This document shows positions 4,991 to 63,664 of a DNA stretch of 64,000 nt, piece by piece. Below the pieces are notes generated by a model. The model made no database searches. It was not told the origin of the DNA and was given only the letters and a program-made list of their open reading frames with translations. Position 1 is the first letter of the stretch; each line of letters begins with the position of its first letter. Source of the DNA: a virus (taxonomy: Duplodnaviria; Caudoviricetes); IMG/VR virus record IMGVR_UViG_2675903691_000001, positions 5,365 through 69,364 of that record; one strand, given 5' to 3'. The position numbers were made by a program, and so were the translations under genes.

Positions 4991-5371
4991 TCACATTCCC
5001 ATGGCGCGCAGTTGGCGGATTTCTGAGTCGATTTGCTTCTGAGCTTCGCAGGGGACGCAGGGTTTTTTGGCGACCTGTTTGTCGCTGAGCGACTTCACTT
5101 TCACGGGCCCAATGACGACAGCAGTCCGGCACTGGCAGGTCTCGCAGGTCTCCAGTGTCACCCGCGCTGGGATCTCAGGCAGACGGCAATAACGAATCGG
5201 GCGAGGTTTCAGCTTCCTCCCGCCAGCACCGCATTCCGGCCAGACGATCAGACCGCCGTCACTTTGTTCTTCGGGTAGATGCACGGCGGTGCTTTCAATC
5301 TCGGCGCATTCCTGTGCTGCGAGTCCTGAATCAGTTCTTGGCGGTTCGTGCATCCCTCGTCTCCTTGCCAC
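4991..5371 (-). CDS. Cys-rich hypothetical protein (start uncertain)
   Basis: CxxC motifs (CETC, CVPC); overlaps end of the upstream gene. Confidence 0.5.
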   Translation of the reverse strand: MARRRGMHEPPRTDSGLAAQECAEIESTAVHLPEEQSDGGLIVWPECGAGGRKLKPRPIRYCRLPEIPARVTLETCETCQCRTAVVIGPVKVKSLSDKQVAKKPCVPCEAQKQIDSEIRQLRAMGM

Positions 5372-39145: not shown

Positions 39146-39238
39146 AGGTCTGAACTCCGGTTTGGGTGTGATTCGCCCTGTCTCGTCAGTGTCAGGCGGG
39201 CAATCCTGACAGACCGGCCAGCGCGGCCGGTTTCGACT

Positions 39239-50169: not shown

Positions 50170-50512
50170 TGGGGTTATCCTTCCCGCCCCGACCGGCAGC
50201 GGCGAGGGCTTTACGCAGGTCTGCTGCTGCCACGTCGTCACCATGCCAGTCCAGTTCATCCGCAGCCTTCAGTGCAGCCTCGACCAGCCCGTCCATCTGC
50301 CGCCGCAGGTCCGTGGGGGAGTCGATGCCTGCTTCCTCGATCGCACGGTCGAGGTCTTCATTGAACGCGCCGTCTTCCGATGCGACAAGTGCGACTTCGG
50401 CAAGCGCGTCCCAGTGCTGATCTGTTGCACTGCGTCGAAAGTGGGAAACAAACTTCCGTCGCCATTCGTCGGTTGTCAGCGACTTTCTATCGTTCTTAGT
50501 TGCCTGGCTCAT
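50162..50512 (-). CDS. Hypothetical protein
   Basis: GGAGG RBS, coupled. Confidence 0.65.
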   Translation of the reverse strand: MSQATKNDRKSLTTDEWRRKFVSHFRRSATDQHWDALAEVALVASEDGAFNEDLDRAIEEAGIDSPTDLRRQMDGLVEAALKAADELDWHGDDVAAADLRKALAAAGRGGKDNPNG

Positions 50513-50925
50513 GTGGCCTCCTTCAGTGTTTTCAGTGTCTGTGTCATGCAGAACGCGAACGTGCCCGTCGCGAGCTTCTGCGGTGATGTCGTCGGAGTCA
50601 GTGACGTTGGCAGGTGCAATCTCGGAAATGGTCCGTTCGTCGCTTTGATGGTGTACACCGATTCCGCGAGACCGCCACGGGTTTCATTGCATACAAACTT
50701 CAGGTTCGTAATCGGCAGTCCGTCCCTGCAGATAAGTTCCATCGGGTCCGTGATCGGTCGAGGCCGGTATCGAGACCTGCCTTTGCCTCGCTCTTGCGAC
50801 GGAACTCGAAAGGTGTTGTCCCCAGACTCTTCGATGAAGATGCGCCAGTCCGCAGCGACAATCACGTCGATGTTGTAGAAGTGGCCGTCGTCGCAGCAGA
50901 CGTAGATATATCCAAGGCTCATCAC
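50509..50925 (-). CDS. Hypothetical protein
   Basis: 138 aa, coupled. Confidence 0.6.
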   Translation of the reverse strand: MMSLGYIYVCCDDGHFYNIDVIVAADWRIFIEESGDNTFRVPSQERGKGRSRYRPRPITDPMELICRDGLPITNLKFVCNETRGGLAESVYTIKATNGPFPRLHLPTSLTPTTSPQKLATGTFAFCMTQTLKTLKEAT

Positions 50926-50960: not shown

Positions 50961-51179
50961 TCAGGGTTCGGGCAGTGCGTCGACTTCCGCGTCGGTCATG
51001 TTGCGAACATGGAAAGTCACCGTCACTGGACCTCCGAGCGGGTCTCGCTGGATGTCTTTGAGAACCTCCCCCATCAGATGGGCCAGCGATTCACCGCAGT
51101 CGCCTTTCTCGTGAAGCCTCCCGACGTACGTTTGGCAGTCGAAAACATCGGCCTCAATAAACAGTCGTTGTGCCATCAT
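50961..51179 (-). CDS. Hypothetical protein
   Basis: GAGG RBS, 72 aa. Confidence 0.65.
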   Translation of the reverse strand: MMAQRLFIEADVFDCQTYVGRLHEKGDCGESLAHLMGEVLKDIQRDPLGGPVTVTFHVRNMTDAEVDALPEP

Positions 51180-51415
51180 CGCCTCGTGTTGTTTGGCAGG
51201 TTTGAACTATCCGGAAATTCCGGACAGTTGCTGTCAGTGGTTGAAACTATGCCCGTCGAGATGTGTGAAAGGTGCCCGTCTCTCCGGGCTGTCACCGCGT
51301 CCGTGCTACGTTTGCGGTTTGCTGCGGCGGCCTCCAACCTCAGAACTCACCTTCCAGTTGGAATCCCCGTCTTCAACTGATAACAGTGGAGGTGAGGGGG
51401 AACATTTCATCGAAG

Positions 51416-51659
51416 TGGTCGCGTCTGGGTTCGAACCAGAAACTACTCTCGCCTTGCAAAGCGATTTCATGCACAAGGATGGACTTTTGGCGTCGTGGGC
51501 CTGAATGCTCCACGGATCGTGGATAGCAGCCACATGCAGCCGCAGTCTCGTTTTCCGTGTTACAGTTTCGGCGACCTCCGTTCTCCACGAACGGCGCTCT
51601 GTCGTCTGAGCTACCACGCTTCCCGCCCTCATGGTGTCTGCCAATTCCACCACGCGACC
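51416..51659 (-). ncRNA. 244-nt tRNA-framed RNA with a large insert in place of the anticodon loop and a nested tRNA-like domain
   Basis: Acceptor GGTCGCG/CGCGACC plus A73; Leu-type D arm GTG-GAATTGGCAGA-CAC; T arm TCTGG-TTCGAAC-CCAGA; inner GCTC/GAGC arm and CCGTT-CGTGGAG-AACGG arm. Confidence 0.75.
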
Positions 51660-51950
51660 ATGTTGCCGCAGTTAGGGTCGCGGCTCACCCGAGTGCTGGT
51701 TAGTTCTTCATGGCTGTTCTCCTGTTGCTGTTGAATCGAAATACTGTCCTCATCCACTGCCTCAAGCCCGCGTGAACGGGCTGTCTCGGCTCAACTTGTT
51801 TCAATAAACCGCGTGATCCCTATGGGGTTGTAGAGCACTCAGACTCGCGGCATTAGGTGCTCGGCCAGCTTTCATTCCACTCGCATCTGGCCCCTGCTTT
51901 TGGTGTGGAGTGACTCAACTTGTCGCGGGCGGAAGGGCGGGGCGGCGGCG

Positions 51951-52931
51951 TTACCACGACCATTCGCTGACGATTTCACATCGCTGCACTTTCACAATCT
52001 CGCCGTCTTTCACTGAAACATCCGCCGATTTCATAAGTGCCACCTTGTCTCCGAACCGGCAGCAAAGGACGGCACCTGGTCGAACTCGCCATGCGAACCG
52101 CTCTGAAGTCACGCACGCGAGACCCGTGGCAGAGACCTCAATTGTCGAACACTCACCAGTGATGACCGCAGCACCCCTGTCCCCGGAAGCCGTCGCAGCA
52201 CCCCTGTACCCGGAAGCCGTCGCAGCACCGCTGTCCCCGGAAGCCGTCGCAGCACCGCTGTACCCGGAAGCCGTCGCAGCACCGCTGTCCCCGGAAGCCG
52301 TCGCAGCACCCCTGTCCCCGGAAGCCGTCGCAGCACCGCTGGCCCCGGAAGCCGTCGCAGCACCGCTGTCCCCGGAAGCCGTCGCAGCACCCCTGTCCCC
52401 GGAAGCCGTCGCAGCACCCCTGTCCCCGGAAGCCGTCGCAGCACCCCTGTCCCCGGAAGCCGTCGCAGCACCGCTGGCCCCGGAAGCCGTCGCAGCACCG
52501 CTGGCAGCCATCTTCACCCACGCAACGTGGCCGGGAATCGTCAGCTTCAGTGCTTCTGAATATGCGCCACAAAAGACCACTTCAGGGCATCGACAGGCTT
52601 CGTCGTTGGGAACCGCTTTCACTTTGTCGCCGAGATCGATCACGTCGTCAGGATGCGCGGCAAAGACAATCCATGTCGCCCCAAAGTCTGGGAACTTTCC
52701 TTCCCCGAGACCGAATCCCCATGCCCATCCGAACAATCCGCCACTGCTGCAATCAGGTTCTCGGCTGAACTTCGCGGGACGGACAGGACCGCTCTTCGGC
52801 CACACGAAACCACCGTGCGAAGTCAGGTCGTTGTTCACGACTTTTAGAATCAGGACTTTGTCGCCTCCGTTGGTCCATTGGTGGCGCGGCGTGATGACTT
52901 GTTCGGTTTCTTGTGGCATCGTGAAATCCAT
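51951..52931 (-). CDS. Phage protein with (xxGAATASG)n repeat
   Basis: Globular N-domain, 12 nine-residue repeats, beta-rich C-terminus. Confidence 0.85.
   Translation of the reverse strand: MDFTMPQETEQVITPRHQWTNGGDKVLILKVVNNDLTSHGGFVWPKSGPVRPAKFSREPDCSSGGLFGWAWGFGLGEGKFPDFGATWIVFAAHPDDVIDLGDKVKAVPNDEACRCPEVVFCGAYSEALKLTIPGHVAWVKMAASGAATASGASGAATASGDRGAATASGDRGAATASGDRGAATASGDSGAATASGASGAATASGDRGAATASGDSGAATASGYSGAATASGDSGAATASGYRGAATASGDRGAAVITGECSTIEVSATGLACVTSERFAWRVRPGAVLCCRFGDKVALMKSADVSVKDGEIVKVQRCEIVSEWSW
52168..52503. repeat. 27-nt coding tandem repeat, about 12 copies
   Basis: GCAGCACC(C/G)CTG(T/G)(C/A)CCCGGAAGCCGTC units. Confidence 0.95.
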
Positions 52932-54303: not shown

Positions 54304-54582
54304 TCATTCGTCCCGCCACATTCGTTCGCGCCGGGCTCGTTTCTCTTCCCATGTCGGATTCTTCGTTTTGACGCTGGGAACGGCCCAGATCAGGCACTTG
54401 TCCGGTGCAAAATCAAACTCGAACATGATCGCTTCGAAGCCGTATTTCGCGCCGATACTAACCATCAATTGCATCGCCTCTTCTCGACTGGCCTCGCCCT
54501 TCTTGAGTCGCTTTTGGATGTCGTCCAGGGCGTTGTTGTCGGCGAGACTGATCTCGAACCGCTTCTTCTTTAGCGACCTCAT
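54304..54582 (-). CDS. Hypothetical protein
   Basis: 92 aa; overlaps tail of upstream ORF. Confidence 0.55.
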   Translation of the reverse strand: MRSLKKKRFEISLADNNALDDIQKRLKKGEASREEAMQLMVSIGAKYGFEAIMFEFDFAPDKCLIWAVPSVKTKNPTWEEKRARRERMWRDE

Positions 54583-55261
54583 CTGATACGTCCTTTGGCA
54601 CCGAGAATTCGGGAATCAGTCCGGCGGTCTTTGGCTTGTATTCGATGGCCTGCGGCGCCTGCTTGTTGTTCAACGGGACGTACTCAAGGTGCTTCGCAAT
54701 CGGGTGTTCAGGCAGTCCCGAGTGAATCTCGACCGTCTCCGGGGACGGGAGGCCGCGGCTGCGGTTCTCACGCTCCGCGATACCCGGCAATGGCGAGGCA
54801 TCCCCTTGACCTGTCTTGGCGATCACCAGATACGCCTGAATGAAATGCTTCTCCGCCCACACCATCTCTTCCGAGGACAAGCCGCACAGCTTTTCCCATG
54901 TCCAGCGAGTTCTGATCGCCGCATTGATGATCCGATCCTGAAAGTTGATCGTCCGCATCGACCCGAAACAGCGGATCTGTTTCCGCACACTCGTCCAGGC
55001 TTTCGCTGCTCGCTCGGCGTCGTTCAAGACCGGTGCGAATTTGCGAAGTGCTGCTGGTGATGGGTAGTCCGTGCATTCCCGATTGAAGCGGTCTACGGCG
55101 ACCTGGACGTCGCTCACCTTCAGGTCGATCAGGGCATCGATCCAGCTTTTCAGTTGGTCTGCGGTCAACTTAATGTTGCGCAGGCCGAAGAACGATTCCA
55201 GTATTTTTCGCAGATCCGCTTTGCGCTGCGTAATCGAGTCAGAACGGGACATCTGATTCAT
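54458..55261 (-). CDS. Replication-associated protein (helicase loader/DUF6475-like)
   Basis: YPSPAALR, AAKAW..V...I, FQDRIINAAI, EKHFIQAY; follows initiator. Confidence 0.6.
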   Translation of the reverse strand: MNQMSRSDSITQRKADLRKILESFFGLRNIKLTADQLKSWIDALIDLKVSDVQVAVDRFNRECTDYPSPAALRKFAPVLNDAERAAKAWTSVRKQIRCFGSMRTINFQDRIINAAIRTRWTWEKLCGLSSEEMVWAEKHFIQAYLVIAKTGQGDASPLPGIAERENRSRGLPSPETVEIHSGLPEHPIAKHLEYVPLNNKQAPQAIEYKPKTAGLIPEFSVPKDVSDEVAKEEAVRDQSRRQQRPGRHPKATQEGRGQSRRGDAIDG

Positions 55262-63590: not shown

Positions 63591-63592
63591 AG

Positions 63593-63664
63593 TGGGGGAT
63601 GCCGGCTCCGCCCCGGCTTCTTCGAGCGTATGAAGCTCGTGAGATTCTCAACCTCCCATCCCCG
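63593..63664 (-). tRNA. Non-canonical tRNA-like cloverleaf, anticodon CAT
   Basis: 72-nt canonical geometry; CGAGC-TTCATAC-GCTCG; C1:C72 mismatch; T loop GGCGGAG; lacks U8 and D-loop GG. Confidence 0.6.

Follow-up and report, generated by a model that had tools for sequence, protein, structure and literature searches.

Phage genes for tRNAs are commonly attributed to codon usage or to evasion of defences that cut tRNAs. What, then, is a phage gene that keeps the body of a tRNA and has no anticodon? The question is raised by a 64,000-nucleotide (nt) stretch of viral DNA, hereafter the window (IMG/VR record IMGVR_UViG_2675903691_000001, positions 5,365–69,364). At 51416–51659 on its minus strand, an earlier note had described a 'tRNA within a tRNA', a leucine-type tRNA frame in which a nested tRNA-like domain takes the place of the anticodon loop. 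The window is C22:190123-254122 of a 6.3-Mb bacterial host genome, and PHROG and Pfam matches among its open reading frames (ORFs) identify it as a prophage. We think it more likely than not that the prophage element encodes a leucine-tRNA-shaped RNA that does not decode, and that this RNA is an oversized member of a large phage class with an exchangeable domain at the anticodon position.

The sequence bears out the parts that the note had listed on the minus strand: the acceptor stem, the UG dinucleotide, the D arm, the T arm and the nested domain are all present. Its description as a tRNA-shaped RNA gene of a phage (here a prophage), built on a leucine-type frame, stands as well, the D arm being identical to that of tRNA-Leu. 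The outer frame, read directly from the sequence or by folding, consists of the following parts:

51416–51659, minus strand: whole tRNA-shaped RNA gene, 244 nt; discriminator A at 51416, CCA not encoded
51653–51659, minus strand: acceptor 5′ strand GGUCGCG, Watson–Crick paired at 7 of 7 positions with 51417–51423
51634–51650, minus strand: Leu-type (class II) D arm GUG-GAAUUGGCAGA-CAC, with a stem of 3 base pairs (bp) and U8 G9 just before it
51627–51633, minus strand: 5′ strand of the anticodon-position stem, CAUGAGG, paired with 51472–51478, two G·U pairs included
51472–51478, minus strand: 3′ strand of the anticodon-position stem, CCUUGUG, paired with CAUGAGG and closing the insert
51449–51464, minus strand: variable-arm hairpin UCGCUU-UGCA-AGGCGA, from folding
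51468–51465 and 51448–51444, minus strand: linkers GAAA and GAGUA flanking the variable hairpin, from folding
51424–51440, minus strand: canonical T arm UCUGG-UUCGAAC-CCAGA, with the acceptor 3′ strand directly after it
51417–51423, minus strand: acceptor 3′ strand CGCGACC, from sequence, followed by the discriminator A
51676–51682, minus strand: second, upstream copy of CGCGACC, from sequence only, which could pair with the acceptor 5′ strand in a hairpin with a 16-nt loop

All 15 base pairs of the frame and its conserved tertiary nucleotides are intact and, because seven of seven acceptor positions pair exactly beside canonical D and T arms, the frame goes beyond chance. The D arm, which contains A14, A15 and G18G19, matches letter for letter the tRNA-Leu D arm of many genera in the host's bacterial family, and the bacterial leucine identity set (A73, A14, A15–U48 and the D-loop geometry) is kept. 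The acceptor stem has the same sequence as that of the host tRNA-Val(UAC), with A73 also common to both, and position 3–70 is U3–A70, that is, not G3·U70. Two details given in the earlier note needed adjusting. The variable-arm hairpin is there, in a region of 31 nt (a 6-bp hairpin with linkers of 7 and 8 nt) rather than about 29 nt, and the second CGCGACC copy exists at 51682–51676, one base off the estimate. The linkers GAAA and GAGUA may form a loop E/sarcin–ricin motif, which would account for the linker length. The variable hairpin resembles an Ala(UGC) anticodon arm, but not significantly: 17 of 300 shuffles reach its score. ARAGORN makes no call in default mode and, with introns allowed, calls the element at 51415–51659; that call alone proves little, because intron mode gives 21 calls across the host genome, most of them spurious.

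In place of an anticodon loop, the frame holds a large structured insert, made up as follows:

51479–51626, minus strand: insert in place of the anticodon loop, 148 nt, closed by CAUGAGG/CCUUGUG instead of a 7-nt loop
51494–51618, minus strand: inner cloverleaf, 125 nt, with a 5-bp closing stem CGUGG/CCACG; predicted fold
51611–51596, minus strand: inner D-like hairpin GCUC-AGACGACA-GAGC, preceded by UA and followed by G
51594–51578, minus strand: inner anticodon-like hairpin CCGUU-CGUGGAG-AACGG, followed by AGGUC
51572–51499, minus strand: long arm at the inner T-arm position

The stalk that the note had placed above the closing stem (GGCG/CGCC) is present, with one G shared with the anticodon-position stem, so that it amounts to 3 bp. 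A 127-nt inner stretch folds as a cloverleaf in which the minimum-energy and centroid structures coincide (z = −2.3). Its 5′ half aligns with class I tRNAs of the host (Thr, Pro and Arg) at a score of 33, a value reached by none of 300 dinucleotide shuffles (19.9 ± 2.4), and on that ground we take the inner unit to be tRNA-derived. It is not itself a tRNA, because it has no D-loop GG (G18G19), a G instead of U at position 33 (in CGUGGAG) and no T loop. The innermost 61 nt of the insert show no tRNA likeness. A complete inner tRNA of the outer isotype, as a nested cassette would carry, was sought and not obtained, the inner unit being class I inside a class II Leu frame. Short words recur through the element (CGUGG three times, CCACG and ACUGCGGC twice each, CGCGACC twice). 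The heptamer CGUGGAG, with its G33, is also found as the anticodon loop of rare phage tRNAs or tRNA-like genes (L158:5953-5995, L159:3085-3159, which is the same as L161, and L160/L162), the stems of which covary. The element, in the upper size range of its class, clearly illustrates how a tRNA-derived domain can be recruited as cargo.

The note's view that the RNA does not decode and is not a transfer-messenger RNA (tmRNA) holds. A 700-nt search at the element against Rfam 15 (E ≤ 10) returned no match to any family, self-cleaving ribozymes included, and the individual candidates can be set aside in turn. A decoding tRNA (RF00005) has, besides the missing Rfam match, no default ARAGORN call and no canonical 7-nt loop in its favour. 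For tmRNA (RF00023 and relatives), U3–A70 and a negative result with ARAGORN -m add to the missing match. A group I intron in a tRNA gene (RF00028), the alternative that the note had offered, has no match in this search, and no excision restores a normal tRNA. YrlA or another bacterial Y RNA (RF02553) is matched neither by the Rfam model nor by R1, a family-specific model. When 920 variants of the element with the insert excised were generated in silico, none combined a canonical 7-nt loop, U33 and a leucine anticodon.

The note had treated the element as one of a kind, and here it has to be revised. The plan, in which a leucine tRNA body bears a foreign domain where the anticodon would be, is common among phages, and RNA1 of phage T5 is an annotated precedent. 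IMG/VR was scanned with a pattern that consists only of a Leu D-loop word and a T-loop word 55–85 nt apart, a spacing that normal genes leave unfilled (ordinary tRNA-Leu, about 40 nt; tRNA arrays, at least 112 nt). The scan yielded at least 115 loci with lengths of 102–131 nt. Among the 115 matches listed, 109 have 6–7 of 7 acceptor positions complementary at tRNA-correct offsets, and an ordinary tRNA is called in only one (a chance tRNA-Glu). A scan at 86–111 nt spacing added at least about 64 further loci of 132–157 nt. Together, the two scans give at least about 170 leucine-type frames of 102–157 nt, in which the acceptor strands are complementary and the middles hypervariable. When 61 members are aligned, the D and T stems, neither of them used to select the loci, are 99–100% paired with compensatory changes, and the middles are not alignable; the same frame recurs with unrelated middles, for example in 20 members with the acceptor AGUCAGG. 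Members tend to be solitary, as is the window element: 73 of the 115 listed loci hold no tRNA anywhere in the fetched locus. The discriminator is A in 77% of the class and a C comes next in nearly all, the element agreeing on both, and the D loop GAAUUGGYAGA is common to the element, T5 RNA1 and all collected members. Middles with tRNA-like words were found in 7 of 70 members of the 86–111 nt set, at least five of these being ordinary tRNA pairs.

The element has the anatomy of this class, with a 7-bp acceptor stem and A73, U8 G9 and a 3-bp D stem, a T arm and no 7-nt loop. Its membership rests on this architecture, because R2, a covariance model of the frame built from the 61 members, does not discriminate between the class and tRNA-Leu. 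On anatomical grounds it may be regarded as an oversized variant, common descent being left aside. One class member, L434:1361-1474 (plus strand), has a T arm and acceptor 3′ strand (25 nt) equal to the 3′ end of the host tRNA-Val(UAC). The tRNA-Val likeness of this member and of the window element could be a coincidence, shared descent of the frame or a link to a tRNA-Val attachment site.

Across the class, the retained parts are the 7-bp acceptor stem, the Leu-type D arm, the variable-arm hairpin and the T arm, and the part dropped is the one read by the ribosome. RNase P, the 3′-end and CCA-adding enzymes and leucyl-tRNA synthetase (LeuRS) read the 12-bp acceptor/T-arm stack, the D-loop/T-loop elbow, A73, A14 and A15–U48. 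Because the frame keeps exactly the features that those enzymes read, we infer processing by host tRNA enzymes: RNase P would cut the minus-strand early transcript at G1, and the host 3′-end and CCA-adding enzymes would finish the other end. This agrees with the note, which had proposed processing by RNase P and RNase Z; the geometry of acceptor, T arm and elbow is the one that RNase P and the 3′-end enzymes recognise. The tRNA frame would then probably be a stable scaffold that displays a lineage-specific inserted domain. Here the insert would derive from a class I tRNA that has lost the hallmarks listed above, and the remodelled cloverleaf could mimic a tRNA body for some binding partner. 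Leucylation is possible, because bacterial LeuRS ignores the anticodon and the leucine identity set is kept. That a tRNA body is kept and its decoding part replaced in well over 100 other viral contigs points to a job other than translation.

Several observations weigh against this reading. The element is a singleton: neither the insert nor the element as a whole has a homologue in the collections searched (INPHARED, 398 host-family genomes, IMG/VR, JGI metagenomes and GTDB genomes, the last three by exact-pattern scans only). The whole-element folding energy is only modestly better than that of shuffles (z = −1.86), and the linkers of the variable hairpin, at 7–8 nt, exceed the lengths found in ordinary class II tRNAs. 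The pattern used to collect the class has a fixed Leu D loop and T loop, and the class may be polyphyletic; it is also heterogeneous, 13 of the 56 members called by intron-mode ARAGORN being readable as tRNA-Leu with small inserts. R2 scores true tRNA-Leu genes as high as class members. In the 64-kb window it matches this element alone, which speaks for the reading, but in two pieces, at 51659–51543 (24.7 bits, E = 1.7 × 10⁻⁴) and at the T arm, 51442–51424 (11.1 bits), that it does not join across the 198-nt middle; L090, a large-insert locus described below, behaves alike.

The main alternative, unlikely in our view but deserving to be taken seriously, is a dead gene, that is, a phage tRNA-Leu disrupted by the insertion or recombination of tRNA-derived DNA and now decaying. 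No anticodon loop is recoverable, the inner tRNA-like part has lost G18G19, U33 and the T loop, the element is a singleton, its recurring short words are compatible with messy duplication, and arrays of degenerate tRNAs occur in the host's bacterial family. Decay does not, however, sit well with a frame in which pairs and tertiary nucleotides are intact around an insert far diverged from any tRNA; a pristine outer frame with a heavily remodelled inner part is the opposite of what neutral decay would predict. The anticodon loop, moreover, has been neatly swapped for a continuous helix and not merely interrupted, about 600–770 nt of non-coding DNA is retained around the element in a compact phage region, and more than 170 phage loci keep the frame with unrelated middles, which shows that selection maintains the design. 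The element might also be the relic of a small tRNA-carrying cassette inserted in the anticodon loop of a resident tRNA gene, as the position of the roughly 148-nt insert, a tRNA-derived unit plus a long hairpin exactly at that loop, would suggest. We consider this improbable, because the inner unit is incomplete and of class I in a Leu class II frame, the intact part is the outer frame rather than the cargo, and the insert has no second copy in the genome.

Removal of the insert as an intron, by self-splicing or by an endonuclease and the host RtcB ligase, is very unlikely. Intron-mode ARAGORN does call a tRNA with a 151-nt intron, RtcB is encoded by the host, and the weak P7-like words GAGACU...AGUCC are present in the element. 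Against this stand the missing group I match, the absence of bulge–helix–bulge geometry at the junctions, the failure of all 920 excisions, and the ARAGORN solution itself, a 'tRNA-Gln' with a 4-bp stem, C33 and the loop CCUUGUG; a length of 151 nt is also, to our knowledge, below the size of known group I introns. The idea raised in the note of a leucylated tmRNA analogue that rescues or hijacks ribosomes draws on the tRNA-frame-plus-insert logic and the intact leucine identity elements, and we give it next to no credence. Neither ARAGORN nor Rfam finds a tmRNA, G3·U70 is absent, and the full D arm is unlike the tRNA-like domain of tmRNA. There is also no plausible resume codon or credible tag frame: read up to the stop codons within or beside the insert, the frames end in ...SPKL and ...HPCA. 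Two other ideas of the note, a tRNA decoy and gating of processing by the upstream CGCGACC, are conjectural, though the 7-mer itself is present.

Like a Y RNA, the prophage RNA might instead be a partner of, or a competitor for, the Ro60 (Rsr)/Rtc system by which the host repairs RNA. The host chromosome carries an RNA-repair operon at G000:C18:132000-145000 (also L289), with rtcR (plus strand) adjoining the Ro60 gene rsr (minus strand), then an array of tRNA-like RNAs, an IS200 transposase, rtcB, a DUF6714 gene and rtcA; rtcR is divergent relative to the rsr–Y RNA array–rtcB–rtcA unit. The array contains YrlA-like units of 55, 54 and 29 bits, one YrlB-like unit and one Acido-Lenti-1 match. 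It also holds a 111-nt leucine-tRNA-shaped RNA with an expanded anticodon arm (C18:138050-138160), in which a CUU/CAA internal loop and a hairpin replace the anticodon loop (Rfam tRNA, 41.9 bits; R2, 48.2 bits). Words resembling the Ro module occur in or beside the prophage element (GACUGCGG, AGUCCAU and ACUUCGAUG). Set against these points, Rfam gives no YrlA match, and R1, built from 17 host-family YrlA RNAs, misses the element and finds only the chromosomal locus genome-wide. No Ro60 gene is present among the prophage ORFs scanned, and none of the 29 other Y-RNA loci holds a leucine-shaped RNA. We consider this reading doubtful, and slightly less so than the cassette relic; the link between Ro60, Y RNA and RtcB and the prophage element is a lead and not a finding.

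On the reading that we prefer, a non-decoding leucine-tRNA-shaped RNA with an exchangeable domain, the second member in the Ro60/Y RNA/RtcB operon gives a concrete hypothesis. The class could be a modular phage device in which a frame accepted by RNase P, the CCA-adding enzyme and perhaps LeuRS and EF-Tu of the host carries exchangeable 'warhead' domains in a conflict over tRNA damage and repair. The crippled cloverleaf would be bait for a host factor that binds or cuts tRNA, and the chromosomal operon member would be the cellular counterpart. We offer this as a speculation with only an outside chance of being right.

Several further observations concern the Y RNAs and tRNA-like frames of the host and its family. 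The word ACUUCGAUG (51407–51415, minus strand) lies directly after the discriminator of the element and resembles the 3′ Ro-module word of the family Y RNAs. A third leucine-like frame in the host genome, G000:C11:3039-3130 (minus strand; 92 nt; R2, 33.8 bits), has no recognisable anticodon stem, and default ARAGORN labels it, wrongly, as tRNA-Gln. Tandem YrlA arrays are present in 38 of the 151 sampled genomes of the host family, about a quarter (loci L310–L339), and several of them adjoin clusters of odd tRNAs. The family has a Y-RNA subtype with CGACUGCCGG...GGAGUMCAU on the 5′ side and ACUUCGUCG on the 3′ side, which mostly falls below the Rfam gathering score and has 16 covarying pairs in a 17-sequence alignment.

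The searches for relatives of the element itself can be summarised briefly. INPHARED phages, in both distant and near mode, contain no DNA homologue, the host genome returns only the self-match and no second copy of the insert, and matches in the 398 host-family genomes are limited to ordinary tRNA-Leu D arms. An exact 24-mer of the 5′ frame has 0 matches in IMG/VR. The inner D arm combined with the CGUGGAG loop matched only rare phage tRNAs that carry this loop and are otherwise ordinary; a Leu D arm with a class I D arm 10–40 nt after it, looked for in GTDB genomes and IMG/VR, was met only as a chance juxtaposition. A first frame scan with a gap of 180–210 nt was dominated by tRNA arrays and yielded only L090:3503-3738 (plus strand; IMGVR_UViG_3300032263_000035). 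The 7-bp acceptor stem of this leucine-type frame of 236 nt is perfect; its anticodon position carries a small hairpin rich in purines, and about 150 nt are inserted where the variable arm would be. L090 is matched by no Rfam family and has no relatives in INPHARED. A literature search found no paper on a class of anticodon-less Leu-tRNA-shaped phage RNAs.

The element is encoded on the strand of most called genes in the window, in a non-coding stretch between an upstream gene for a collagen-repeat protein (51951–52931) and small downstream genes. The matches that mark the window as a prophage include major head, portal and tail-fibre-like proteins, DNA methyltransferases, a RecE-like exonuclease and a serine recombinase. 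A protein-coding reading of the element was rejected, because the 115-amino-acid ORF that covers it has no Pfam match and a non-genic GC content at codon positions 1/2/3 (0.53/0.55/0.60, against a prophage gene mean of 0.62/0.45/0.69); by the same measure, a 53-amino-acid ORF at 51176–51337 is likewise non-coding. The downstream gene at 50509–50925 is an orphan, and single-protein IMG/VR searches found no relatives for it or for the gene at 54458–55261. The upstream protein has relatives at 44–65% identity, and in three contigs with such relatives there is no intergenic gap and no tRNA-like element downstream. No RNA datasets are listed with the stretch, and the sole run that contains it is probably its source DNA.

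Other features were noted near the element and elsewhere in the window. The spacer downstream of the element (51180–51320, minus strand) is strongly structured (z = −4.4), with an 11-bp near-perfect hairpin and no U tract, and could be a processing or termination signal. Upstream by 40 nt lies a three-codon mini-ORF, AUG AAG AAC UAA, with a good Shine–Dalgarno sequence (51700–51725, minus strand). A type II hammerhead ribozyme is found at 39172–39238 (minus strand; 45.1 bits against a gathering score of 37, E = 5 × 10⁻⁶), within a region of the prophage (about 36.2–39.9 kb) that has no ORF of 150 amino acids or more. At 63592–63664 (minus strand), ARAGORN calls a tRNA-Met to which the Rfam tRNA model has no match at E ≤ 1; the call is either false or marks a further aberrant tRNA-like element.

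What is special to the element is the size of its insert and the tRNA-derived cloverleaf within it. The value of the locus lies mainly in being an entry point to an essentially uncharacterised RNA class, one that is not in Rfam and is easily missed because tRNA finders reject its members. The one annotated example found, T5 RNA1, has been without known function for decades.

T5 RNA1 (AY543070, 30501–30644) is entered as misc_RNA rna1 and annotated as a 'tRNA-like stable RNA with unknown functions', its stability being known from the record annotation only. It consists of an acceptor stem, UG, a D arm CCG-GAAUUGGUAGA-CGG, a 5-bp stem that closes about 45 nt, a variable-arm hairpin and a T arm. 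Similar to the window element, it is phage-encoded and combines a Leu-type D arm with a stem-closed insert at the anticodon position, a variable hairpin and a canonical T arm. It is smaller (144 nt, of which about 45 nt are insert) and belongs to the T5 tRNA cluster, whereas the element, with 148 of its 244 nt in the insert, stands alone in a prophage region of early genes; outside the frame, the two share no sequence similarity. The leucine-shaped RNAs collected from IMG/VR have the same frame and no anticodon loop, and are mostly solitary like the element, but measure 102–157 nt. Only L090 is comparable in size among the members found, and its large insert is at the variable-arm position, as opposed to the anticodon position in the element. 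Canonical tRNA-Leu (RF00005) shares the acceptor stem, D arm, T arm, A73 and class II layout and is scored alike by R2; unlike it, the element has no anticodon loop and no Rfam tRNA match at E ≤ 10.

YrlA (RF02553) is a tRNA mimic that is circularly permuted and ends in a Ro60-binding helix, with its acceptor closed by a loop (Chen et al. 2014, PMC4201824). YrlA and the element both have D and T arms, both are expected substrates of tRNA enzymes, and both are present in phages; the element differs in having tRNA polarity and no Ro-binding module, and it fails both YrlA covariance models. With tmRNA, it has in common a tRNA-like top with a large structured insertion, on which an anticodon-independent synthetase could act, but it lacks G3·U70, a tag frame and the pseudoknot series, and has a full D arm. 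A parallel in layout made by design is the 'tRNA scaffold' of Ponchon and Dardel (2007), in which an RNA of interest reportedly replaces the anticodon arm and tRNA enzymes are said to process and stabilise the product. The scaffold is an engineered tool, whereas in the prophage element the arrangement is natural.

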